Origin: a plasmid
Length of the DNA: 64,000 bases
Direction: 5' to 3' (one strand)
Sequence record: NZ_LC532224.1
Shown here: piece after piece, positions 4,836-64,000 of the stretch
Numbering within the stretch: the stretch's first letter is position 1
Layout of the letters: the number at the start of each line of letters is the position of its first letter
The notes under the pieces: model-generated
The model's input: only the letters and a program-made list of their open reading frames with translations
Told to the model about the DNA's origin: nothing
Database searches by the model: none
Translations under genes and position numbers: made by a program

Positions 4836-5229
4836 TTGGGGTCACCTATATATAGTAAGAAGGAAGAAACAAATTTTTGTTTCAACACGAAGGCAAAGCC
4901 TGTCATTCATCTCCCGTAAGCTATGAACCGCCTGATTTATACTATCTGGCATTAGAAGTACGCAACAAAAATAGCCCCAGGAGGAGCTAAATTAGTTACG
5001 GTTTGGTAAATTCAGATTGCCTTTTGCAGGCATGGGAAGTGCACCAGCGACAAAGGTGACATTTTGCCGGTGGTGTCTTACAGCTTGTTTAAGCTGGCCG
5101 CTTTTCACGGCTAAATCAACGCTTAACGCGAAAGTAACTTTAAGCAAAGTTACTCAAATTTGGGAGCTGATATTTAAGCTCATTGTTTTTATACTATAGC
5201 TTTAAGCATAAGTAAATGCCCATATCGAA

Positions 5230-45610: not shown

Positions 45611-46201
45611 AGACCGTTCTCCTTTTCTGATGCGGTTATGATGGCATACAAAAAAAAGGTTAGAGCTCGTATAGCATGGTCGTTTTTATGTTGAAAAGGA
45701 CGGAAAAGGAGTGCTGACTAAGAAGATAGTCTCGGTGATGGAAAGATCATCCATCTTGCACGTTGTCAAAAATCCGGTGTAACAAAAACATGGTTTTATC
45801 GAATATCTAAAAGCAAATATTGCTTTGAAAACAGGTGTATTTAGAGCTGAAAAAAATCATCACAAGTAATGCTGTTTCTATATTTCAAAAAAGGAATAGC
45901 TAAGGATCAAAGAAGCGAACTTAGACAAGAATATAAAATATATTAATTGAAAGCGATTAAGAAGTCGTCATGCATAGAAGGTTTTGAGAACCTAAGTAGT
46001 TTTACGTTTTCAACAGAAAAAAAGGTGCACATTTTTGGAACGAAGAAAAACTGAATAAAGAAAAATCAAATTATATCTTTACTTGTCAAGAGTTGATATT
46101 TAAGTTGTAACTAATATTTGATTGTAAAGCAAACAACAGAATTTGACTTAAGTCAATATTTAGATTCAGACAAGGCAAGTTTCGCGATATCTTTTTTAAA
46201 T

Positions 46202-46714
46202 TTAATCTAATTCTTCTTGAGAATACCTCTCTATGGCTGAAGCAGTTGAAGATAATCTGCAACGTGGACAGTGAGCATCATTTGTCACTGGCACAATGTA
46301 TGGGCGTTTACATTTTTCGCAGGCACCTAGTTCTTCAATTTCTTTCATAGAAGTAAGGATTTCTATTATTTTATTAACTTCCGGTGCGCATACAAAGTAT
46401 CCCAGATTATGAAGGACACTCATTATTCGGTTGAAGTCAATTTGCCGAAAACTCGCTTCCGGATTTATTGGATCAAAACCAAAATAGTTAACTGCGACAT
46501 CAATAACAGCAGAAAAGGCTCGGCGGTTATCTGTGCGTTTGCTCCAGCCCCGGATACCTTTTTTGAGTTTTGTTTTTGCACCAGGCTCAAAATCGATATT
46601 TTCAGCAACATGATTACCGTACAAAATTCGTATTGTATTTTTATTTGCCCCAAGCGACATAGTTCTTGCTGCTCGCAATAGAGCATTAGCTTTTGTTTGA
46701 TCGACCTTTGCCAT
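46202..46714 (-). CDS. hypothetical protein with C-terminal zinc-ribbon (CxxC...CxxC). This may be a regulator of the trhF operon (TrhY-position).
   Basis: 170-aa ORF with CEKCKRP...CPRCR. It immediately follows the 266-aa ORF and sits upstream of the AT-rich trhF promoter region. Confidence 0.45.
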   Translation of the reverse strand: MAKVDQTKANALLRAARTMSLGANKNTIRILYGNHVAENIDFEPGAKTKLKKGIRGWSKRTDNRRAFSAVIDVAVNYFGFDPINPEASFRQIDFNRIMSVLHNLGYFVCAPEVNKIIEILTSMKEIEELGACEKCKRPYIVPVTNDAHCPRCRLSSTASAIERYSQEELD

Positions 46715-46715
46715 A

Positions 46716-47516
46716 TCAATAATCCTTTAACATAACTTTATTTGTTAAAGTGTTGAACACATCCTGACGGTGACTGGTGAACATAGTGTCATAACGTAAT
46801 AGTTCCATCAAATCATCACTAACTTTTCCTAACCGGATGTCAGCAGACAATTCATAAGCCCAGGCAAAAACTTTCGTTTTAAGTGAAACACTCTCTTCAA
46901 TATGCCCTTGTGAGAAAGCAATTGTACGTGGGAAAAGAACGACATCGTTAATTGTTTTTAACGATGAATAACCAATGTCTTTAATAGCATCAGCTGTAGT
47001 TGGTTTTAAACCAAAGAAAATACTTACAAACTCTGGTGCGAGCATTGAGATAAAGAACACCTGCATAAAGTAGTCATTCTGTATATCAACACATTTAGAA
47101 CGCAACTCATGAATCTTCTTGGGATTATAGATATCCACTGTACCATTCAGAAAAGTCACTTTTTCACCGGCATCGTAAATACCATAGTCAATATCATTTG
47201 TATCATATTCACGAATTACATTGGAATCACCGTCCAAGACCGCAGAAAAAAACCTCTCCCATGTAATTTCCTTTCCGAGTGTACGCGGAACCAAAAAACT
47301 ACCTGGACGTGTTTCCACTTCAAAAGCTAAATCAGCGGCTGTACTAAATCCTTTCCCAAATAGGCGACGCTGGAGAAGAGGAGTCCCAGTTTGATATGCA
47401 GAAGATCCATGCACAGGCAATAACATTAAAAATGCACGGTAACTACGAATAAGCGAAATCTCAGTGCGGAAAAGTTTACCGAGTAAGCTACGAGTTAAAT
47501 TATCAGATTCTGACAT
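46716..47516 (-). CDS. hypothetical protein. This may be a transfer regulator (TrhR-position).
   Basis: 266-aa ORF divergent from the relaxase operon across the oriT-like region. Confidence 0.45.
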   Translation of the reverse strand: MSESDNLTRSLLGKLFRTEISLIRSYRAFLMLLPVHGSSAYQTGTPLLQRRLFGKGFSTAADLAFEVETRPGSFLVPRTLGKEITWERFFSAVLDGDSNVIREYDTNDIDYGIYDAGEKVTFLNGTVDIYNPKKIHELRSKCVDIQNDYFMQVFFISMLAPEFVSIFFGLKPTTADAIKDIGYSSLKTINDVVLFPRTIAFSQGHIEESVSLKTKVFAWAYELSADIRLGKVSDDLMELLRYDTMFTSHRQDVFNTLTNKVMLKDY

Positions 47517-47844
47517 GTGCTGATTGTCCTTGCGCCATTACAATTGTTCAAATCTTCAACATGGATTTTTTGTTAGGTGTTCGGTAGGGTGAAAAGTAAC
47601 TTTTAGTATTTTCTTAAGGCTTGAATAAGCCTTAAATCTATCCCTTCAACCACACCGCTTACTTGTAACACTTTTTAACCAAACTAACCAGAATTTTATC
47701 AAAAATTCCTGCGCATGCTAACGAAATGTGAAGCGATTAAAAAAAAACCTAAATCCAGCCCCTCCCAACGTTGGATTAGAATAACGACGTCTTTCACTGA
47801 CCGTCATAAACTGACATTTTTACTTTTCATCAACCTCATGCTTA

Positions 47845-48008
47845 CATAGGATCACTAAACAAAGAAAAGTGACCCTATGAATGCCTCACATAGGGTCACT
47901 TATGTTTGAAAAGTGACCCTATGTAATGTCGTCATAGGGTCACTTTTTATAAAAGTGTCACTATGGACAAAGTTCCATAGGGTCATTTTTTTTGGAAAAG
48001 TGGCACTA
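47845..48008. promoter_or_regulatory. candidate oriT / iterated operator: three tandem units of about 43 bp, each an inverted repeat GTGACCCTATG-N9-CATAGGGTCAC
   Basis: IR1 47869-47899, IR2 47913-47943, degenerate IR3 47955-47986. Extra half-sites at 47845-47855 and 47999-48008. Located between divergent transfer operons, upstream of the relaxase operon. Confidence 0.55.
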
Positions 48009-48275
48009 GATATATGTATAACTTTAATAGAGCAATGCACATTATCAAAAGCAATAATCCACAATGGTCATTCTGTCAAAAGTAACTTTAGGGGGTAGCG
48101 ATGGAAGTGAGGCTAAACTCGCTGTTACTGTTTCTGAAGGCCCCTCCCGAATGGGGGAAACAGCGAGTGCATTACATCTGTTCAATTCCCTCATCAAAGA
48201 GCATTCAAAAATCTTCTGTTCGTGAAAAAAAACGGAAATTTCCTCCGGTATAGTAATTTCACATCAGGAGGCGTC

Positions 48276-48761
48276 ATGAGTAATTCAAATCTTATAAGTT
48301 CTATAGAGCTAACACGTAAAAATTTACGTGCTCAGATTGAAGGTTTGCGTGTTGAGGCTGAAGATCTCATTACAAAATACTGGATCAAGTGGAAGGAACG
48401 AAACCACCAAGAGATTAACCTTACCCGACATAGCAAAGTTCCAAAGAGGGAGTACCTGGGTTCTTACGCACCAAAAGTTGAGCTAATTGGTAATGCCAGA
48501 AAAGTAACGATCACTTGGCATCAGTTCAGCCCTTATAAAACAAGAGCGCCTAGCCACATGTCAAAACGGGTGCAACCAATGAAAAGTGGAAAATATTCTA
48601 AGAACTGTTTTGTAAACCATGCCAGCTGGGAATACGAAATGATTTCTGAAACGGAAGCATTGCTGGAGCCTTACAGAGAAATGCTTGAGCTCTATCATTC
48701 AGCATATATCGAACTTGGACGAAAAATCCGTCAATACTCAAAAACTAAGGTGGCACAATGA
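48276..48761 (+). CDS. small protein, first gene of relaxase operon (putative relaxosome accessory, TraH-position of H-type Tra1)
   Basis: ATG at 48276 preceded by AGGAGG. The track ORF starts earlier at 48222. Coiled-coil-like N-terminus. Confidence 0.45.
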   Translation: MSNSNLISSIELTRKNLRAQIEGLRVEAEDLITKYWIKWKERNHQEINLTRHSKVPKREYLGSYAPKVELIGNARKVTITWHQFSPYKTRAPSHMSKRVQPMKSGKYSKNCFVNHASWEYEMISETEALLEPYREMLELYHSAYIELGRKIRQYSKTKVAQ

Positions 48762-49495
48762 ACGACGCAATTATCACGGACAATGAGCGTATTAACATTG
48801 AACCAAAAGATGTAATGGTAAAAGGTTCAAATAAAAAGCAAGGCGTAAACGCTCAAACTTCTACTCAACGTAGACCAGAGCACCAGGGTATGGCCAAAGT
48901 TATTATTAACCCCGGCACCCCAGACTTTAACCGGTTTTTAACTGCCAGAAATGGAGCAGTCATCAGAGGTTTTGATGATGTGAGTATCGCTATTTCCTCT
49001 CTCTTTAAAACGGTTGATGCAGTTAAACATCCTGACCTTGTTCAGGCTATTCAGGATTGGTTCAACGAGCTGCATGAAGAAAACAATAAGATGAAAGAAA
49101 ATCTTGTTGCTTATATTAAGTCAATTGAGTTCGACAAGAATGACTCATTCATGTCATCAACTCAGTTTGTACCTTTCAGTTTTGAACCAGTACAACTCAA
49201 CTTCAATAACCACAACACCATGAGGTTTTACAAGTACATCTTCGAGATGAACCAGCTCATGAACACAATGTATGAGTACAACTCATTGGGTTTACTGGCT
49301 GTAAGCGACTATCCGGTTATGTCTCACAACATTATAAAGAGTATTAATTTATATGTTGAGAATGTGAAAAAGACTCTGAATGTTTCTCGCCGTAAGGATG
49401 GGCCATACAGTCCAGCAGAGTTCATCACCAAAGTAATGCAATATAAAAGTGTGCAGGCATACATTGCAGCCGAACTGTCAGGCAAACGTCGATAA
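48758..49495 (+). CDS. hypothetical protein (putative relaxosome accessory / MobI-like position)
   Basis: 245-aa ORF, translationally coupled (ATGA overlap) with the upstream gene and followed 4 bp later by the relaxase. Confidence 0.45.
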   Translation: MNDAIITDNERINIEPKDVMVKGSNKKQGVNAQTSTQRRPEHQGMAKVIINPGTPDFNRFLTARNGAVIRGFDDVSIAISSLFKTVDAVKHPDLVQAIQDWFNELHEENNKMKENLVAYIKSIEFDKNDSFMSSTQFVPFSFEPVQLNFNNHNTMRFYKYIFEMNQLMNTMYEYNSLGLLAVSDYPVMSHNIIKSINLYVENVKKTLNVSRRKDGPYSPAEFITKVMQYKSVQAYIAAELSGKRR

Positions 49496-49498
49496 GGT

Positions 49499-52400
49499 AT
49501 GATGATGAATTTCAGGGCGCTGTATTTATGTATTAAACGGATTTTGGGGATATTCTCATCTCAGGAGAATGATGCAACCTCTGTAATGATTGAGGATATA
49601 TCAAGCCTCTCTCCTTTTGCGCAGATTCTAGGAGATCAGAAGTACACTGTTCCTGATCATCCAAATCCAGAAGTCCTGAAATTCATCGAGTATCCAACTC
49701 GTCCGACGGGCATACAGACATTTAATGAACAGTCAATCCTGTCTCTGTATCGGGAAAAGCTGCACTCAATTTCAATGATGTTAGCTATCAGCGATAGCGA
49801 CATCAGGGACGATGCATATACATTTACTAATTTAGTTTTAAAGCCCTTGGTTGAATATGTTCGCTGGATACATCTTTTGCCAGCTTCCGAAAATCATCAT
49901 CATAATGGTATTGGTGGGTTACTTTCTCACAGCCTGGAAGTGGCCATACTCTCTTTAAAAAATGCGCATCACTCAGAACTGAGACCAATCGGATATCAAG
50001 ATGAAGAAGTAGTCCGTAGAAAAGTATATCTCTATGCTGCGTTTATCTGTGGTTTAGTCCATGATGCCGGAAAGGTTTACGATCTCGACATTGTAAGCCT
50101 GAATTTAGCTAGTCCGATCATTTGGACGCCAAGCTCACAAAGTCTTCTTGACTGGGCACGTGAAAATGACGTGGTTGAATACGAAATCCACTGGCGAAAG
50201 CGTATTCATAATCAACATAATATCTGGTCCAGCGTTTTCCTTGAGCGAATCCTAAACCCGGTATGTCTTGCATTTTTGGATCGGGTAAATAAAGAACGTG
50301 TTTATTCAAAAATGATCACCGCCCTAAACGTTTATACTGATGGGAATGACTTTTTGTCTAAATGCGTGAGGACCGCTGATTTCTATTCTACTGGTACAGA
50401 CCTTAATGTTTTACGTGACCCTATCATGGGTCTGCGTTCTAATGATGCAGCAGCAAGGGCCATTAGTACCATCAAGCACAACTTTACCAGTATCAATATC
50501 AACAATTACAATGCTAAGCCTATGCACATCATTATCGTAAATGGTGAGGTATACCTTAACGAGAACGCATTCCTTGATTTTGTTCTCAATGATTTCGAAT
50601 TACATAAATATAACTTCCCTCAGGGAGAGGCTGGTAAGACCGTATTGGTAGAATCCCTAGTTCAACGTGGTTACGTCGAGCCCTATGATGATGAGCGTGT
50701 CGTTCACTACTTCATTCCGGGTATCTATTCGGAAAACGAAATATCAAACATCTTTAGAAATGGGATAGGGAAACTAGAATTCTATAACCTTCTTAAGCTA
50801 AGGTGGATTGGTTTAATCTTTGATTCCTATAAAATCCCTGACTCAGTGCCGGGTCTTTTTAGCGTTAATGCCAATAAAGACTTTATTTACATTGACGAGC
50901 AAAAAACAGTTACTGAATACAGAAGACCAGTGCCCGGTCGGGACGTTATAACTAAAATTACTGATACTGTTGAGACGGCTGTTCTTAAGGTTAATGATTT
51001 AGGCCGCTCCTCTGCCTCTATTGATGTTGATATACATTCTAAGAAAAATGAAGGCTCATCCGACGATTTTGAGAAGAAAGCCGAAAGTGATAATGAAATT
51101 GATAATGACACGCAGATAGTTAAATCTGAGGGTGAGGAAGCAGCTGATCCTGTCATTCCTGATATAGAAGAAAGTGAAGATGAATCGGCAAAGGACACGG
51201 AATCCCATGTCCTGGTCAACCAACTTCATGAACTCCTTTTAAGCGCTCCACTTTCCAATGACTATATAGTGTGTGTTGATGCTGTCCCCTACCTCAACAT
51301 AGATACCACTATGGCATTGCTGCCGGGATTAGATGAAAAAGCATTCAGTGAAGAGCCCTATTTCCAACTGACATTCAGAGAAGGCTCTCTCGATGGAATG
51401 TGGATAGTAAGGGACATTGACGATCTGCGTTTAGTCCAGCTCGGCGATAACTGCGCCGGGTTCCAGCTCACCTATCATGAGCCAAGAAGGCCAACAACTT
51501 TAAAGTCACTTTTCAATACTTCTATGTATCAGGCATTAGTGATTAATGATGAGTCTTCTGTTGAAAACTCTGCCCCACGTCCAAAGCAAACGCTTGAGCT
51601 GCCTCCCCCACGTGTAAATGCAGTCGAAGAACATTCTGGCGACGTGGAATATCATGGAACCGATAGTGCATCCGCGACTGGTCCGCTGAAAACTGAGGCT
51701 GTGGAATATGAACATTATCAACATCTTTTTGAGAAAGAAGATGAAGAGCATGAGATCATTGATTATACCGATTTCTCACAGCTTAGTGTTTCTCGGCCAG
51801 AAGTCGGTAGTTGTGCAACAAGCTCTTCGGTCCATAATGAAAAGCTTCTCTCCGAGCCGTCAGAATTACCAGAACTTAACCGAGAACAGAACGCTGATCC
51901 CCAGGGTACGAATGAACGCTCTATGGATGTTTCTGTAGGACAAGAAAACTCAGAACCAGATACTGAGGGTAACTGCCCACCACCAGCTGAAGTTGTGTAT
52001 TCCCAGACCGAAGCAGCCGCAACCAGTGTGATGGCAAGTGAAGAGCCCGCCTTACCTCCTGTACTTGAAGAATCAAATGGAGAGCATGCGCCCACAGACG
52101 CTAAGGGGCATCATCTTTCGCCAGCACTGGCCAGACTGTTCGCCCCAACAGCACCGGTAGAAAAACAAAATCCCAAGCGCAACCGGAATAAATCATCGGA
52201 CAAAGCAGAAGTACAAAAACCAGCATCACCTGTTTCTGGTCACAATCTGAACAGTAAAGTCTTTGCATCTACTGAATCAGACCAAAATGGTGAATTCTCG
52301 CTTATAAGCGAAGGTGACGTTACAGAGCTTGAATTTGTAGAAATTGCGTTAGTACTGCATCAAATTCTGTCCAAAATGGAGGTGGCGTTTAAAAGAAAGC

Positions 52401-52651
52401 GCAAAAACAGATTTATGGTAAGTACTCCTAATACTCTCTATCTGACCCAATCTTGCGTGGAAAAATTTGGGTCGCAGTTAGAGGCTCAAGATCTTTTCAA
52501 TAAGCTTCCTCAGTACCTCGTTAATTCTGGTGCTGTGATCAATACAAAATGCCATGCATTTAACATGCCTACTTTGCTGGCCGCATCAGACCGGGCGAAA
52601 GTGGACATTGAACGAATTATCAATAACCTGAAAGAGGCTGGGAACCTATAA
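49499..52651 (+). CDS. traI: MOB_H-family conjugative relaxase with HD-hydrolase motif (TraI of IncHI/SXT type)
   Basis: HD-domain signature ...LLSHSLEVAILSL...GLVHDAGKVYDLDIV... A long acidic low-complexity C-terminal region. Immediately upstream of the coupling protein gene. Confidence 0.7.
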   Translation: MMMNFRALYLCIKRILGIFSSQENDATSVMIEDISSLSPFAQILGDQKYTVPDHPNPEVLKFIEYPTRPTGIQTFNEQSILSLYREKLHSISMMLAISDSDIRDDAYTFTNLVLKPLVEYVRWIHLLPASENHHHNGIGGLLSHSLEVAILSLKNAHHSELRPIGYQDEEVVRRKVYLYAAFICGLVHDAGKVYDLDIVSLNLASPIIWTPSSQSLLDWARENDVVEYEIHWRKRIHNQHNIWSSVFLERILNPVCLAFLDRVNKERVYSKMITALNVYTDGNDFLSKCVRTADFYSTGTDLNVLRDPIMGLRSNDAAARAISTIKHNFTSININNYNAKPMHIIIVNGEVYLNENAFLDFVLNDFELHKYNFPQGEAGKTVLVESLVQRGYVEPYDDERVVHYFIPGIYSENEISNIFRNGIGKLEFYNLLKLRWIGLIFDSYKIPDSVPGLFSVNANKDFIYIDEQKTVTEYRRPVPGRDVITKITDTVETAVLKVNDLGRSSASIDVDIHSKKNEGSSDDFEKKAESDNEIDNDTQIVKSEGEEAADPVIPDIEESEDESAKDTESHVLVNQLHELLLSAPLSNDYIVCVDAVPYLNIDTTMALLPGLDEKAFSEEPYFQLTFREGSLDGMWIVRDIDDLRLVQLGDNCAGFQLTYHEPRRPTTLKSLFNTSMYQALVINDESSVENSAPRPKQTLELPPPRVNAVEEHSGDVEYHGTDSASATGPLKTEAVEYEHYQHLFEKEDEEHEIIDYTDFSQLSVSRPEVGSCATSSSVHNEKLLSEPSELPELNREQNADPQGTNERSMDVSVGQENSEPDTEGNCPPPAEVVYSQTEAAATSVMASEEPALPPVLEESNGEHAPTDAKGHHLSPALARLFAPTAPVEKQNPKRNRNKSSDKAEVQKPASPVSGHNLNSKVFASTESDQNGEFSLISEGDVTELEFVEIALVLHQILSKMEVAFKRKRKNRFMVSTPNTLYLTQSCVEKFGSQLEAQDLFNKLPQYLVNSGAVINTKCHAFNMPTLLAASDRAKVDIERIINNLKEAGNL

Positions 52652-54735
52652 TGTCAGATTCGAAGAGGACTAACCTCCATGCACAAGAGAATTTTTATCG
52701 GCCTATTCTTGAGTATCGTAGTGCCTCAATACTTTTGATTTGTTCGGTTTCTATGCTTTATATGGGACTTTCTTCAGACGGACTGGACATCGCCCCAATA
52801 GTTCTGTTCACCTCAATATTGCTTTTTTTGCTGTGCCTTTATCGTTGCAAAACAGCAGCGCCATTTTTGATGGCTCATTGGCGTGTATTCAAGCGACATT
52901 TCATGTTCGTTAGTCTTGATTCACTGCGTGTAATTAACAAAAGTAACTTTTTCTCCAATGAGCGAAAGTATCGTCAACTGGTTCAGGATTATCAAAATAA
53001 AAATAAGGATATACCCGAGCGAAAGTCCTATTTTTGTGATGGGTTTGAGTGGGGTCCGGAACATGCGGATCGGGCATATCAAATAGCTAACCTCTCCAGT
53101 GATAAACGTGAGATCGAGTTGCCATTCGTCTTCAACCCAATTAAGAGACATTTTGACGCAATGGCTCGTAAGATGGGCGGCAGCAATGCAATTTTTGCTG
53201 TGGAACGTAGGGAACCCATATTTGTAACTGAAGACAATTGGTTTGGTCATACTCTGATAACCGGAAACGTGGGTACCGGGAAAACGGTGCTACAGCGTTT
53301 ACTAAGCATTAGCATGCTTCATCTTGGTCATGTTGTTGTTGTCATAGATCCAAAGAACGATGCAGAGTGGCGAGAATCTCTAATGGAAGAGGCTAAGACC
53401 CTCGGTCTTCCTTTCTATAAATTTCATCCTGGCCAGCCAGCATCTTCGGTCTGTATTGATGTCTGCAACACCTATACTAATGTTTCTGACCTAACATCTC
53501 GTCTTTTGAGCTTGGTGACAGTTCCCGGTGAGGTTAACCCATTCGTTCAGTATGCCAAGGCTCTCGTTTCCAATGTGATTTCCGGGCTTTCTTACATAGA
53601 GAAAAAGCCTTCTATTTATCTGATTCACAAGAACATGAAAAGCCACATGTCTATTGTGAATCTTACAGTCAAGGTAATGGAGTCATGTTACGCGAGATAT
53701 TATGGTTACGATGTCTGGACCGAAAAAGTTAAGTACGTCGCTAACGATACCTTGCCGGTACGTTTCAAGCGTCTCGCTGAATGGTTTACGGCTCATTTCA
53801 TGAATTACGAGGGGTCCGAACAAATAGACTGGTTAGATACTGTTTCCCAGCTTATTGATTACTCAATGTCCGACCCAGAGCATATGGCTAAAATGACCGC
53901 AGGTATTATGCCTGTTTTCGATATGCTCATTGAAAAACCTTTAAATGAGCTTTTATCTCCTAACCCGAACTCAGTATCATCAAGAGAAATTGTAACAAGC
54001 GAAGGGATGTTCAGCACTGGCGGGGTGCTATACATTTCGCTTGATGGCCTTTCAAACCCCGATACAGCAGCTGCTATTTCTCAATTAATAATGTCAGATC
54101 TGACCTCCTGTGCCGGTAGTCGCTACAACGCTCAAGATGGTGATATGTCAGCTAATTCCAGGATAAGTATTTTTGTTGATGAGGCACACTCAGCCATTAA
54201 CAACCCTATGATTAACCTTCTGGCGCAGGGTCGTGCAGCGAAAATTGCACTGTTTATTTGCACCCAAACCATCTCCGACTTTATTGCTGCGGCAAGTGTT
54301 GAAACTGCCAATCGAATTACGGGGCTCTGCAACAATTATATAAGCTTGCGAGTCAACGATACTCCTACTCAGACGCTTGTTGTAGAGAACTTTGGTAAGA
54401 GTGCGATAAGCACAAATATGGTCACTTATACGACCGGTTCAGAAACATCTTTGCCGCATAATAACTTCTCAGGTTCAATCTCAGAAAGAAAGCAGACAAC
54501 TTTAGAAGAGAGTATTCCAAAGGATCTCTTGGGTCAGGTCCCTATGTTTCACATAGTTGCCAGGCTTCAAGATGGCAGGAAGGTTGTAGGCCAAATCCCT
54601 ATTGCTGTTGCTGAGAAACAAATGAAGCCAAACACAACTCTGTCGGAAATGCTTTTCAAGAAGGCCGGAAAAGTTACTTTGCGTCAAAATCTCGATATCA
54701 AAAATCTTAATAAATTTCTAAGGAAGTTGCATTGA
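52651..54735 (+). CDS. traG: type IV coupling protein (VirD4/TraD/TraG family)
   Basis: Two N-terminal TM helices. Walker A GNVGTGKT and Walker B-like IFVDEAH. 694 aa. Confidence 0.85.
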   Translation: MSDSKRTNLHAQENFYRPILEYRSASILLICSVSMLYMGLSSDGLDIAPIVLFTSILLFLLCLYRCKTAAPFLMAHWRVFKRHFMFVSLDSLRVINKSNFFSNERKYRQLVQDYQNKNKDIPERKSYFCDGFEWGPEHADRAYQIANLSSDKREIELPFVFNPIKRHFDAMARKMGGSNAIFAVERREPIFVTEDNWFGHTLITGNVGTGKTVLQRLLSISMLHLGHVVVVIDPKNDAEWRESLMEEAKTLGLPFYKFHPGQPASSVCIDVCNTYTNVSDLTSRLLSLVTVPGEVNPFVQYAKALVSNVISGLSYIEKKPSIYLIHKNMKSHMSIVNLTVKVMESCYARYYGYDVWTEKVKYVANDTLPVRFKRLAEWFTAHFMNYEGSEQIDWLDTVSQLIDYSMSDPEHMAKMTAGIMPVFDMLIEKPLNELLSPNPNSVSSREIVTSEGMFSTGGVLYISLDGLSNPDTAAAISQLIMSDLTSCAGSRYNAQDGDMSANSRISIFVDEAHSAINNPMINLLAQGRAAKIALFICTQTISDFIAAASVETANRITGLCNNYISLRVNDTPTQTLVVENFGKSAISTNMVTYTTGSETSLPHNNFSGSISERKQTTLEESIPKDLLGQVPMFHIVARLQDGRKVVGQIPIAVAEKQMKPNTTLSEMLFKKAGKVTLRQNLDIKNLNKFLRKLH

Positions 54736-59764: not shown

Positions 59765-60064
59765 TCAGTCACCACCACCACCTCCGTCACCTCCTCCACC
59801 GCCACCATCACAACCACCAGCTATGCTATTTTCACCATTACAATCACCTCCGAGGGGGTTCAAATGGCTGCTCCCCTGTAGATGGTGTCCTTGCCAGATC
59901 GAACCCGAACCAGCGCCTCCTGAGCGTCTTTGCTTGCCCTGAGGCAATTGTGCAGGCTCACCAGCACCGGCGGTACCAAAAATGTCCCGGGCAATTTTAT
60001 AAAGAAGGTAAAAAGGTACGCCCAGCATCATAAAAAAGATTACTGAAAATATTACACGTTCCAT
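59765..60064 (-). CDS. small membrane protein with Gly-rich C-terminal tail
   Basis: N-terminal TM. The C-terminal GGGGGGDGGGGGD tail is encoded by an imperfect GGT/GGA-type simple repeat at 59768-59830. Confidence 0.35.
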   Translation of the reverse strand: MERVIFSVIFFMMLGVPFYLLYKIARDIFGTAGAGEPAQLPQGKQRRSGGAGSGSIWQGHHLQGSSHLNPLGGDCNGENSIAGGCDGGGGGGDGGGGGD

Positions 60065-60496
60065 TGATGATCTCCTGTCTTGTGAGAGACCAGTTATATC
60101 AGGGTGATTCAGTATTTCCGTTTAGAAAAGAGTACTAATTTGGCCCTGTTCGCTCTTAATTTGCCATCCGGGAAAAAGTCATAGGGATAGGCCTGCCAGA
60201 GTCAATAACTTCCAGTGATCTGGAGGAGACCCCGGCTCTCTGAGCCCTCATGGATGGTACGGCTTTACCCCTTGTAAACAGATTCACGTTCCGCAGGACA
60301 AACATCGACTACTGACGTCTCATATTTGCTGACGCTAATCCGACGTCTCATTGCCGTCTGCTTGTTTTCTTTAAAGGGTGTATTAGACGAATATCAAATC
60401 GGAATGGTAGGGGATGTGTGGGCACCATGCCCGGCCCTCTTTGAGCATCTGAGAGATTGGAGACCTAGCCGGGTAAGATAGCTACTTTCTTACGGG

Positions 60497-60865
60497 TTAC
60501 CCTTCAAATCCAAAGACGAAACGGACGCTGCCGTTCTCCACGTGGAGACGCTTTACTTCTTCGACAAATTCCTGGATCACCTCTCCGGCGTTATCGGGTG
60601 GTATGGCTGACAAAATTTCTTCCGAAGTCAGCCATGAGTATGAATGTTCACCGAATAAATCATCATCTTCGGACGGTATATCATCAGGTAATCCGCGTAA
60701 TGCGTGGATAAAAACTGCTGATGTGCTCGCCCTTTCACGATCTACATCAAATCCGAGCCAGGCAAAGTGGAGATATGATCGGTCCCCTTTATAATTGCTT
60801 GATAAATTAATCCATTTACCAGGCTTTTCTTCCCTTTGAAATCGCCAGCAGATATCAACGCCCAT
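60497..60865 (-). CDS. hypothetical protein
   Basis: 122-aa ORF. Confidence 0.4.
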   Translation of the reverse strand: MGVDICWRFQREEKPGKWINLSSNYKGDRSYLHFAWLGFDVDRERASTSAVFIHALRGLPDDIPSEDDDLFGEHSYSWLTSEEILSAIPPDNAGEVIQEFVEEVKRLHVENGSVRFVFGFEG

Positions 60866-61090
60866 TAAGAAACTCCATTACTATCGTTCGTATGAGATAA
60901 CTATCATTTCAGAATACTATGACTTCTTCCCGTATAGAACTAATCGCTCACGCCATTTAGCTACTTACTTTTTTTACGTACGCTTGCAGCGCAGTACCTT
61001 GAGAGAAGTAAGTAAGACTGGGCGAAGCCAACCGGTTCCGCCACCTCGCTCACCGGCTTTTAGGCGTAAGCACTGAAGTCAGCCTCCATG

Positions 61091-61633
61091 CTAACTGGCG
61101 AGCCTGCGAAAGTCAGACTCGTTGTTATAAAGCGGCATATCGTAAGCAGTGTCTGAAATGAACATTCGGATCTGCTCAAGCGTCATGCCACAATGAAAAC
61201 GGGTTACGCTCACATTGGCCCGGGGGAAGTCAGCACAAAATGCATTCAAAACATTCTCATGGACAATACCAATGTTGATTAACGCAGCTGGCCCGTTGTC
61301 ACGGAAAGATACGACACGGAATCCCCCATACCAGCCTGACTGGGAGAAAAATGAAAATGCACTCGTTGCCAGACCATTAGACAGGTCATAGCGCAATTTC
61401 CCGCTCAGAGACTGGCTGTCTCTGCTGTACACGCGATTAATGAAAATGCCGGGACCAACTTCTACCGGCTGCTTGTTGCTTGCTAAACACGGAAAGCCCA
61501 CCAGCGAAACCTCCCTTTCTCCTAACCAGTTTACCTGATACCCGGCAGTGAGAAAGTCAGTCAGTTCTACGCCAGAAAGAGCATTAATGGCCGCAATATC
61601 GGTATCCAAAATATTTACGTTTTTCATATTCAT
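61091..61633 (-). CDS. hypothetical protein
   Basis: 180-aa ORF. Confidence 0.45.
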   Translation of the reverse strand: MNMKNVNILDTDIAAINALSGVELTDFLTAGYQVNWLGEREVSLVGFPCLASNKQPVEVGPGIFINRVYSRDSQSLSGKLRYDLSNGLATSAFSFFSQSGWYGGFRVVSFRDNGPAALINIGIVHENVLNAFCADFPRANVSVTRFHCGMTLEQIRMFISDTAYDMPLYNNESDFRRLAS

Positions 61634-61694
61634 CTCATCTATATTCTAAAGTGCGTTTTTTGTCTATCAGCCCGAGGATTGAAAATTTGAATAT

Positions 61695-62132
61695 TTAATG
61701 TGACAGAAAAATACCTGTCACCTTTTCAAAAACTGCCTGCAATTGAATATCGAGAGAGTCCATTTTAAAATCCACCAGCTCAGCTTTATTATCGCAAACC
61801 GAATAAAAATAGGAGTCAAATGCGTCTGTATCTTCATCTTTAAAAATACGGAAGGAATTAATTTTATTATGCCCTTCAAATTCGGCATGAATACCATAGC
61901 GAACCGAGCCGTCATCGAACTGAACAACCCGTCGTACAGAATTAATCCGGACGTACTGTTTTAAGGCCCTCGCGAAATCGGCATTTAACGCCAACGCTCG
62001 TAAGATTGAATCAGCGGTTTCATTCTGCTTTTTACGATCATATTCAAACATCCCACAGCCGGTGTTACGAAAGACCGGCTGAAGAGCATTAACCAGGTTG
62101 AAGGAATCCACGTTTCTGTCGTTTCTGTACAT
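61695..62132 (-). CDS. hypothetical protein
   Basis: 145-aa ORF. Confidence 0.45.
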   Translation of the reverse strand: MYRNDRNVDSFNLVNALQPVFRNTGCGMFEYDRKKQNETADSILRALALNADFARALKQYVRINSVRRVVQFDDGSVRYGIHAEFEGHNKINSFRIFKDEDTDAFDSYFYSVCDNKAELVDFKMDSLDIQLQAVFEKVTGIFLSH

Positions 62133-62176
62133 GAGATATCTCCTGCCCCTCCGCTATACGAAGGGGCTTGATAGGG

Positions 62177-62473
62177 TTACTGCCAGGCTGCGATCACTTC
62201 TTCGCACTGGAAATGAGATAAGCACTGCTGGAGTAAAAGGGCCAGCACCGCTGTGTTAGGGACGCGATTGTTACACCACGCGTTGAATAGCAGCTGCCAT
62301 GGACCGGCATAATACCCGGCCAGTTTCTTTTTTTGTTTATCTGTGCAGCAGCTGGAAATGGCCTGCTGATAAAGGCTTTCATTCTCGGCACCAGAGCGTT
62401 GTTGCAGTGCCTGATAAATATAGGAGTAGACAGAATCGGAGCAATTAGATGCATAGGCCAGATTGGTTTTCAT
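62177..62473 (-). CDS. hypothetical Cys-containing small protein
   Basis: 98-aa ORF. Confidence 0.35.
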   Translation of the reverse strand: MKTNLAYASNCSDSVYSYIYQALQQRSGAENESLYQQAISSCCTDKQKKKLAGYYAGPWQLLFNAWCNNRVPNTAVLALLLQQCLSHFQCEEVIAAWQ

Positions 62474-62607
62474 AATACCTCCTGTGTTTTTGGGTATTAT
62501 ATAAAACTCCGACCTACTGGCTAATAACCCACACTGTAATTTCTTTTAAAAACACAATAAATTTTCAAAATTGGACCAGTGTGGATTTAAGCGAGCAGTT
62601 TAAATCT

Positions 62608-63168
62608 TTATGAACTAGCTTTCAAAGAGGTTGGTTTTTCGGGAAGTTTTTTGCCAGACCAGCATGTTGGTTTTTTTTCTGTAGTGCAGATTAGCTGGTA
62701 CCTGCCCCTTCTTACCTCTTTGAGCAATGACTGTTTGAAATATGGTAAGCCCAGTTCAAAAACCCAGTAACGACCGTCTGCAAAAACGACTGAATTTTCA
62801 ACGCCATCCGAAGCCACCAAGGATGCATCATTAAGTAGACGTTCTTCATAATGAAATGGTAATGAAAATGTCAGATATAACGCACAAAGTACAAAGATTC
62901 CTGTGAGACTAACTGCCAGTGAACCACAATAACCAGAATAAACATTTAAATTTCTTTTGATAAATTTCTCATGCAAGATTACAAGCAGACAGAATACACA
63001 AGCTACCAGCCCAAATCCTACATGCAGATAAAACTGTCTTATTTCATCATTCCAGACGATGTTGTCCCATTTCGTGCTTAAGATTGAACCCAACAAGGAG
63101 ATAATAAAAGCGGCAATTTGAGAACTGATAAAGTAGGAGAAAGCTGACTTTGAAGTTATTTTTTTCAT
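62608..63168 (-). CDS. hypothetical polytopic membrane protein
   Basis: 186-aa ORF with at least four hydrophobic helices. Its start lies 44 bp from the IS903 end. Confidence 0.45.
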   Translation of the reverse strand: MKKITSKSAFSYFISSQIAAFIISLLGSILSTKWDNIVWNDEIRQFYLHVGFGLVACVFCLLVILHEKFIKRNLNVYSGYCGSLAVSLTGIFVLCALYLTFSLPFHYEERLLNDASLVASDGVENSVVFADGRYWVFELGLPYFKQSLLKEVRRGRYQLICTTEKKPTCWSGKKLPEKPTSLKASS

Positions 63169-63211
63169 AGAAACAGGAACCTCTTTACCTCGTTCCTGAT
63201 CAGAGAAAAGA

Positions 63212-64000
63212 GGCTTTGTTGAATAAATCAGATTTCGGGTAAGTCTCCCCCGTAGCGGGTTGTGTTTTCAGGCAATACGCACGCTTTCAGGCATACCTGC
63301 TTTCGTCATTTTGTTCAGCGCTCGTACCAGGGCCATAGCCTCCGCAACCTGACCATCGTAGTCACGCAGCGTCAGTGAACCCCCGAACAGCTGTTTTACC
63401 CGGTACATCGCCGTTTCCGCTATCGAGCGACGGTTGTAATCTGTTGTCCATTTCCACCGCGCATTACTCCCGGTCATTCGCTGATTAGCCACTGCACGGT
63501 TACGGTCTGCATATTCACCGGGCCAGTAACCCGCACCTTTTCGGGGAGGGATAAGCGCGCTGATTTTCTTACGCCGCAGTTCATCGTGACATAGCCGGGT
63601 ATCGTAAGCGCCATCGGCGGCGGCTGACCTGATTTTCCGGTGGGTTTGCCGGATTAACCCGGGGAAGGCCTCTGAGTCCGTAACGTTGTTCAGCGACAGG
63701 TCAGCGCAGATGATTTCATGTGTTTTACTGTCAACGGCGAGATGCAGCTTACGCCAGATACGGCGGCGTTCCTGGCCATGCTTTTTGACTTTCCACTCGC
63801 CTTCACCGAAGACCTTCAGCCCGGTGGAATCAATTACCAGGTGTGCGATTTCACCCCGGGTGGGCGTTTTGAAACTGACATTAACCGACTTTGCCCGCCT
63901 GCTGACACAGCTGTAATCCGGGCAGCGTAGCGGAACGTTCATCAGAGAAAAAATGGAATCAATAAAGCCCTGCGCAGCGCGCAGGGTCAGCCTGAATACG
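63212..64000 (-). mobile_element. IS903-like (IS5 family) element, partial and continuing past the window end
   Basis: Terminal IR GGCTTTGTTGAATAAATC at 63212-63229. Contains the transposase C-terminus. Confidence 0.85.
63268..64000 (-). CDS. IS903-family transposase, N-terminus beyond window
   Basis: ...DSTGLKVFGEGEWKVKKHGQERRRIWRKLHLAVD...MTKAGMPESVRIA matches the IS903 Tnp. The frame stays open to position 64000. Confidence 0.85.
   Translation of the reverse strand, partial: VFRLTLRAAQGFIDSIFSLMNVPLRCPDYSCVSRRAKSVNVSFKTPTRGEIAHLVIDSTGLKVFGEGEWKVKKHGQERRRIWRKLHLAVDSKTHEIICADLSLNNVTDSEAFPGLIRQTHRKIRSAAADGAYDTRLCHDELRRKKISALIPPRKGAGYWPGEYADRNRAVANQRMTGSNARWKWTTDYNRRSIAETAMYRVKQLFGGSLTLRDYDGQVAEAMALVRALNKMTKAGMPESVRIA

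Follow-up and report, generated by a model that had tools for sequence, protein, structure and literature searches.

Alternating half-site array upstream of mobI/traH as a likely relaxosome-assembly module of the IncHI2 oriT

Introduction

Mobile elements with MobI-dependent MOBH1 relaxases carry their oriT upstream of mobI, as described for IncA/C plasmids (PMC5587640), SXT and Rts1 (PMC10838148) and islands mobilized by IncC plasmids (PMC13635750). MobI of IncC plasmids self-associates, binds the C-terminal domain of the relaxase TraI and yields a single ChIP-exo peak, at oriT/mobI; TraH of plasmid R27 has been named as the MobI-like factor of MOBH11 relaxases (PMC13635750). The R27 oriT is placed next to traH/mobI (PMC10838148). 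MOBH2 relaxases appear to need no MobI homologue (PMC13635750), and the TraI of the gonococcal genetic island is the only MOBH relaxase studied biochemically (PMC6736028). No nick has been mapped for any MOBH1 element, and attempts with IncA/C, both biochemical and in vivo, failed (PMC5587640). The introduction of the same paper describes accessory-protein sites at oriT as assisting relaxase recruitment.

Here we examine the corresponding IncHI2 locus in 64,000 nucleotides of plasmid DNA (sequence record NZ_LC532224.1), called the window, whose coordinates are used throughout unless another sequence is named. IncHI2 plasmids play a major part in carrying mcr-9, mcr-1, ESBL and heavy-metal resistance genes and, to our knowledge, their oriT has so far been inferred only through similarity to R27. 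For R27, Lawley et al. reportedly cloned the traH-trhR intergenic region in 2002 and had it mobilized by R27, an experiment that, as far as is known, resolved only the whole region. A first-pass annotation of the window had proposed a candidate oriT/nic region in tandem palindromic repeats upstream of the relaxase operon. We describe these repeats as part of an array that represents, in IncHI2, a kind of element already known, and we put the probability that it is the relaxosome-assembly module of the IncHI2 oriT at roughly 0.6.

An array of eight half-sites between divergent transfer operons

The locus is 100% identical to that of the IncHI2 reference plasmid R478, and likewise to hundreds of IncHI2 plasmids. 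As first annotated, the repeats lie between divergent transfer operons, in a gap of 759 bp bounded by the ATG of trhR (47516, minus strand) and that of mobI, the traH homologue (48276). They also sit upstream of the relaxase operon as had been described: the array spans 268-431 bp ahead of the mobI ATG and ends 268 bp from it, or 214 bp from an alternative GTG at 48222. The relaxase belongs to the MOBH class that had been named, both by its Pfam domain and by MOB-suite, which types R478 as MOBH/MPF_F. The genes and conserved blocks around the array are these:

46202-47516, minus strand: divergent R operon with the transfer activators trhR (46716-47516) and trhY (46202-46714)
47640-47753, minus strand: left conserved block, holding a sigma-70-like match to a trhR promoter
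48207-48275, plus strand: mobI-proximal conserved block, with an A-tract, TATAGT (48249-48254) and AGGAGG (48267-48272)
48276-48761, plus strand: mobI, traH homologue, 161 aa, Pfam MobI PF19456 (E 3.5e-22); proposed binder of the array
48758-49495, plus strand: 245-aa ORF of the same operon, without Pfam or NCBIfam family
49499-52651, plus strand: TraI, MOBH relaxase, Pfam TraI_2 (E 1e-32)
52651-54735, plus strand: type IV coupling protein of the TraG/TraD type, with T4CP domains

TrhR and TrhY activate transfer genes in R27 (PMC7366339); like the 245-aa ORF, neither had a match in NCBIfam or Pfam. The 245-aa ORF keeps its position in all IncHI-like lineages and is a candidate relaxosome component. 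Its R27 counterpart, R0121, is induced about 8-fold at 25 °C (8.3-fold, PMC7366339).

The window is colinear with R478 only over about 31.1-59.9 kb, the parts at 1-31000 and 59900-64000 being non-colinear. Its first 20 kb hold part of the Tra2 region (rsp, trhN, trhI) and are best matched by other IncHI2 plasmids, for example AP022134.1, so that Tra2 and Tra1 genes lie much closer together in the window than in R478.

By sequence reading, a repeat finder, a motif search and a lineage-aware scan, we found eight half-sites of 15 nt within 47845-48010, alternating in orientation and with the consensus AAAAGTGACCCTATG. They start at 47845(-), 47865(+), 47889(-), 47909(+), 47933(-), 47951(+), 47976(-) and 47996(+), giving start-to-start steps of 20/24/20/24/18/25/20 nt, so that a half-site takes up about 22 bp and a palindrome 44 bp. 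The half-sites pair into three head-to-head palindromes with centres of 9-10 nt, leaving one unpaired half-site at either end; T- and A-tracts form the tail-to-tail joints between palindrome units. The exact 11-mers GTGACCCTATG and CATAGGGTCAC, at 47869(+), 47889(-), 47913(+) and 47933(-), make up two palindromes with 9-nt centres. From left to right, the array and the element beside it read:

47845-47859, minus strand: half-site 1 (CATAGGATCACTAAA), unpaired left end, degenerate in IncHI2 and perfect in R27
47865-47903, unstranded: palindrome unit 1, AAAAGTGACCCTATG-N9-CATAGGGTCACTTAT, with one mismatch between the arms
47909-47947, unstranded: palindrome unit 2, with perfect arms of 15+15 nt and a 9-nt centre
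47951-47990, unstranded: palindrome unit 3, degenerate, AAAAGTGTCACTATG-N10-CATAGGGTCATTTTT, with three arm mismatches
47996-48010, plus strand: half-site 8 (AAAAGTGGCACTAGA), unpaired terminus, invariant among IncHI1/HI2 relatives
48013-48022, unstranded: TATGTATAA(C) box, abutting half-site 8; the 9-bp box itself occupies 48013-48021

The three tandem palindromic units of the first-pass annotation are thus real, as the repeat finder and motif search agree, but they undercount an array of eight half-sites. Its description of the third unit as degenerate was accurate, as was its mention of additional half-sites on each side, which we place at 47845-47859 and 47996-48010. The AAAAGT...ACTTTT flanks that it noted also exist and form part of the 15-nt half-site itself. 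Each half-site joins an unchanging core, AAAAGTnAC, to an extension that differs by lineage and reads CCTATG in the window plasmid.

We searched the complete 274,762-bp sequence of R478, joined from six pieces, for further copies. The 15-mer with up to two mismatches matched six times and the exact 11-mer four times, and every one of these matches falls inside the array, which excludes a chance origin.

Other kinds of repeat element fit the locus poorly. The array does not have the setting or layout of an iteron cluster or partition centromere: it is flanked by transfer genes, rep and par of R478 lie elsewhere, and the repeats are inverted rather than direct. An Rfam scan returned sub-threshold matches only, to hairpin (microRNA precursor) models. 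Short ORFs over the array (47900-48064, minus strand; 47913-48098, plus strand) were dismissed because they cross the unconserved centres. In the searchable literature we found neither the IncHI half-site array nor its lineage variants nor the conserved box described; this is weak evidence, since papers behind subscription, among them those reporting the R27 and R478 sequences, fall outside its scope.

Half-sites are conserved selectively and vary by lineage

The gap is homologous to the trhR-traH gap of the IncHI1 plasmid R27, at about 76% identity, and the R27 oriT is its direct homologue. R27 has the same flanking genes, a gap of 757 versus 759 bp, a box with one substitution (GATGTATAA) and both of the mini-palindromes described below. 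The comparison with the R27 oriT suggested at first pass holds up, since the trhR-traH gap aligns with all eight half-sites in register. The two loci differ in the state of half-site 1, and divergence has also affected the palindrome centres as well as 47754-47844 and 48031-48215.

The locus also shares the make-up of MobI-dependent MOBH1 oriTs. A mobI-family gene (PF19456) follows downstream, with the array 268-431 bp ahead of it; a cognate MOBH relaxase (TraI_2) and a coupling protein with T4CP domains are encoded next to it; and the gap is homologous to a mapped oriT, that of R27, whose mapping is taken from the literature.

To locate conservation within the gap, we aligned whole-length trhR-mobI gaps from the window, R27 and two IncHI1B-typed plasmids. 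Across these four IncHI1/HI2 sequences, 109 of 120 half-site columns are invariant (half-sites 91-93% invariant). Of the columns separating half-sites only 12 of 46 are invariant, and of those in the palindrome centres only 7 of 28 (spacers about 25%); for the surrounding segments, 47754-47844 and 48031-48215, the invariant share is 25-31%. Judged from this alignment, selection is focused on the half-sites.

More distant relatives retain the gene order and the alternating geometry, with steps of 20 and 24-25 nt, but carry half-site variants such as GTnACACTATG, AAGTACTAATGA and GGTACCAATGG. By lineage, they compare with the window as follows:

Photorhabdus plasmid (L013), MobI identity 86%: half-site unchanged, one unit fewer
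Metagenomic contigs (L014, L015), MobI identity 54%: half-site AAAAGTnACACTATG
Klebsiella-type IncHI-like plasmids (L006/L010), MobI identity 38-40%: half-site AAAAAGTACTAATGA
Klebsiella-type IncHI-like plasmids (L007/L011), MobI identity 38-40%: half-site AAAAGGTACCAATGG
Klebsiella-type IncHI-like plasmids (L008/L012), MobI identity 38-40%: half-site AAAAGTCACCAATGG

The half-site thus combines a constant core with a lineage-specific extension, a pattern that marks the co-evolution of a binding site and the protein it binds. This co-variation cannot single out MobI, because every neighbouring protein diverges along with the half-sites. A profile search of genome contigs with the MobI alignment recovered four loci only, all of them near loci already compared. 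Arms that are kept, centres that are free, half-sites that are lineage-specific and a locus that is unique together make the pattern that accessory-protein sites would show. Lineage-specific half-sites would in turn explain oriT specificity, and hence which IncHI-like plasmids mobilize each other.

Conserved inverted repeats might instead act as DNA structures. The palindromes would then be single-strand hairpins or cruciforms read by the relaxase itself, and the array would hold the nick region. TraI of the gonococcal genetic island requires, around nic, 3 nt on the 5' side and 47 nt on the 3' side; these include a hairpin in which structure counts rather than sequence and the loop is irrelevant (PMC6736028). 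Compared by its published description, this MOBH2 system resembles the IncHI2 units in having a hairpin of about 40 nt, the same size, with a free loop beside nic; it differs in having a single inverted repeat. Every unit of the array is likewise a hairpin of 15+9+15 nt, the loops vary freely and the arms shift in concert between lineages. Unit 2 is fully complementary in R478, R27 and the relatives L003 and L004, and its central counterpart in L014 is perfect with a half-site sequence of its own. The single strand folds with z = -7.5, although any palindrome array would fold well.

Several features of the array exceed or escape what a hairpin would demand. Its arm sequence is conserved well past pairing needs, and the flanking units carry 1-5 uncompensated mismatches. 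Those of unit 3 are themselves conserved, its asymmetry at arm positions 8 and 10 being kept in R27, L003, L004 and L013. One hairpin would be enough, yet the array has three units and two unpaired half-sites, and neither unit 1 nor unit 2 is preceded on its 5' side by a conserved sequence resembling a nick site. Natural variants also exist without both perfect hairpins. Since the arm deviations are uncompensated and the unit-3 asymmetry is conserved across lineages, we favour protein sites over hairpin maintenance. Recognition of hairpins by the relaxase is compatible with a relaxosome-assembly module, but we regard it as unlikely to account for the array.

The natural variants are two IncHI2 plasmids, NZ_CP122769.1 (L027) and OW968343.1 (L028). 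Both lack 86-90 bp, aligned to 47862-47950 and including both perfect palindromes, while keeping half-site 1, unit 3, half-site 8 and the conserved box. Because they are typed conjugative in silico, units 1-2 at least may be dispensable. The loss has the form of a deletion between repeats, and could represent assembly collapse or real variants with altered transfer.

A related fragment occurs outside IncHI plasmids. An unrelated IncFII/IncR plasmid (NZ_CP103723.1, positions 1501-2664) carries a piece of an IncHI1 oriT region beside IS1. This piece holds the right-hand portion of the array and a mobI that does not differ from the R27 gene, followed downstream by a truncated ORF. It may be a cointegrate remnant or a captured mobilization module.

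Probable promoters and the left conserved block lie outside the array

A site between divergent operons could instead be the operator through which transcription of the R operon (trhR-trhY) and the H operon (traH-traI) is controlled, with no direct role in DNA processing and with TrhR/TrhY, HtdA or an autoregulating relaxosome protein as its binder. Its position suits such control, as does the autoregulation that is common among oriT-bound accessory proteins of other plasmids. In R27, moreover, traH and the next gene downstream are among the most temperature-induced, at 12.5- and 8.3-fold (PMC7366339).

The distribution of promoters and motifs points elsewhere. A trhR promoter match (TTAGCA-17-TAAAAT with an extended -10 TG; 47721-47693, minus strand) falls where the left block is most conserved. 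The mobI-proximal block at 48207-48275, read from its sequence elements, is a probable traH/mobI promoter with ribosome-binding site. Both lie outside the array, and a promoter scan found no plus-strand sigma-70 site at or near it. An operator for TrhR, TrhY or HtdA would be expected to recur at other tra operons, but no half-site with up to two mismatches occurs upstream of trhF (45611-46201) or elsewhere on R478. This absence upstream of the F operon and across R478 makes a transfer-regulon-wide regulator an unlikely binder. The R operon is, in addition, reportedly not HtdA-regulated (PMC7366339). We therefore find a purely regulatory role for the array improbable.

The promoter match at 47693-47721 is likely that of trhR, and hence of the R operon; its 5' leader would be about 170 nt and would include a mini-palindrome.

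The same left block bears on where the functional core of oriT lies. A published oriTfinder prediction for IncHI2 (PMC13055346) maps by arithmetic to 47502-47753 of the window, in the left block and off the array. The oriT core could then be the left block (~47640-47753), with the array serving another cis function, such as copy anchoring or pairing, or acting as a dispensable enhancer. Within the block, the interval 47667-47696 is 90% invariant in the IncHI1/HI2 alignment, and some plasmids have lost array units. However, a good trhR promoter match lies inside the block and explains its conservation. By eye, the Klebsiella-type lineages show no counterpart of the block, whereas they do have the array and the TATGTATAA box, and the oriTfinder match is probably just the longest or best BLAST segment against the R27 entry. 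Placement of the oriT core in the left block thus seems very unlikely to us, and we retain the array as the probable relaxosome-assembly module.

MobI/TraH is the probable array-binding protein

The nearest well-studied systems that use a MobI protein are IncA/C plasmids and SXT/R391 elements (MOBH12). They share with the IncHI2 locus an oriT upstream of an essential mobI, and IncC MobI binds a single oriT locus and recruits TraI. MOBH12 oriTs are also AT-rich; their repeats (CCAGATAGATAG type) occur in both orientations, and a distinct tandem element comes after them, beside mobI; we found CCAGATAGATAG-type alternating repeats upstream of mobI in R55, an Edwardsiella plasmid and a pAQU1-like Vibrio plasmid. 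MobI is barely alignable between the groups (BLASTP E 0.044), the repeat sequences are unrelated and less regular, and the C-terminal domains of MOBH11 and MOBH12 relaxases differ (PMC13635750). In IncA/C the essential core lies directly against mobI and extends over its promoters (PMC5587640), whereas the IncHI2 array lies 268-431 bp from the mobI ATG.

Looking further afield, the array resembles the TraM sites sbmA-C of F and the TraJ and TrwA sites of RP4 and R388, all of which are multiple, phased, inverted-repeat sites for accessory proteins. Those sites lie between nic and a transfer-gene promoter and help to recruit the relaxase. The proteins are unrelated, and the likeness is an analogy of mechanism only.

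We modelled the MobI of the window with AlphaFold (pLDDT 84.5) and obtained a long helix, three strands and a second long helix, a predicted fold that agrees with what has been published on IncC MobI. A Foldseek search of this model against the PDB gave coiled-coil look-alikes only, none better than E 0.07, so no DNA-binding fold is assigned to the protein. Domain and structure searches found no ribbon-helix-helix or TraM domain in it.

By analogy with IncC, the array is probably bound by dimeric MobI/TraH, which recruits TraI. We propose that the eight half-sites, switching orientation about every two helical turns and joined by T/A tracts, would be bound cooperatively on double-stranded DNA by a dimeric accessory factor, most likely the MobI/TraH encoded 268 bp downstream. 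The bound factor would bend or open the region and recruit the MOBH relaxase TraI, which would nick nearby. The anatomy of the array supplies reagents for work on this scheme, in the form of defined half-sites for TraH/MobI binding tests and natural two-unit deletion variants.

A conserved box beside the array is the best nick candidate

The first-pass annotation had regarded the repeats as a candidate oriT/nic region. Homology to an oriT region and accessory-site-like conservation support the oriT part of this claim. Nothing places the nick in the array, and the palindrome centres make poor nick candidates because they are unconserved.

Just outside the interval first annotated (47845-48008), the TATGTATAA box is the sole non-repeat element conserved in every lineage. 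It is exact in eight of the ten sequences compared, which cover all lineages, with MobI identity down to 38%; the exceptions are R27, with its single substitution, and L014, which has TATGTAATT. In relatives the box lies at about 2729-2737 (L006), 2717-2725 (L007) and 2730-2738 (L014). From this conservation pattern, the box is our best candidate for the nick or relaxase-recognition element, and TraI would preferentially cut in or beside it (48013-48021).

If TraI follows the gonococcal geometry, in which the nick is on the 5' side of a hairpin, it would cut the minus strand within TTATACATA; the unit-3 hairpin would then be on the 3' side of the nick, and the recipient would receive the relaxase operon last. 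Conservation of the box at only 38% MobI identity offers a concrete handle on the MOBH1 nick and, if the box is the nick site, predicts the transferred strand and the direction of transfer.

Other readings of the box were considered and set aside. TATAAC within it was rejected as a -10 element because the final T is missing, and a comparison with Tus Ter sites fails at the GTTGTAAC core, which the box does not match. The box and TTATGTATAAGGG of Klebsiella-type IncHI plasmids loosely resemble TTATGTGGATAGG in the essential core oriT of IncC, a likeness too short to evaluate.

A 13-bp palindrome is dispersed over the IncHI backbone

The array half-sites share their core with a 13-bp palindrome whose extended consensus is aAAAGTWACTTTt. 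Counted as AAAGTNACTTT, this motif occurs 19 times in the window against 0.13 expected, with starts at 5131, 5810, 11131, 12333, 14697, 15880, 18124, 32831, 34395, 35296, 37382, 44535, 47152, 47593, 48079, 51502, 52940, 54670 and 59572. R478 has 54 copies against about 0.45-0.5 expected, compared with a maximum of 3 in 200 shuffles and with 8 copies of the runner-up palindrome of the same form. Two copies flank the array:

47592-47604, unstranded: mini-palindrome AAAAGTAACTTTT, 77 nt upstream of the trhR ATG, one copy of the plasmid-wide motif
48078-48090, unstranded: mini-palindrome AAAAGTAACTTTA, between the array and mobI, where every lineage has 1-2 copies

Every IncHI-like relative has the palindrome, and the IncC oriT locus lacks it. 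Neither it nor the half-site sequences turned up in a relevant paper in the searchable full text. According to the annotation tables of R478, copies are enriched between genes: 31 of the 54 are intergenic and another four come to within 15 nt of a gene boundary, though the intergenic count may be too high because the tables are incomplete. Copies in R478 are restricted to the backbone, and none falls in the stretches at 80-110 kb and 120-140 kb, where the IS26-flanked, mer, sil and pco modules are located.

The 13-bp palindrome is probably the operator of a plasmid-wide DNA-binding protein. A more tentative idea, which we consider possible but doubtful, is that IncHI plasmids carry a backbone-wide protein-DNA network with a KorB-like global operator, and that the oriT array evolved from this network or is coupled to it. 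Such a network, if it exists, could link the global gene control reported for HtdA and TrhRY to the start of transfer. KorB operators (OB) are 13-bp palindromes with a free central base, found in promoters and inside genes across the IncP-1 backbone. The IncHI palindrome has the same length, the same free central base and a similar scatter over the backbone, although the two sequences are unrelated.
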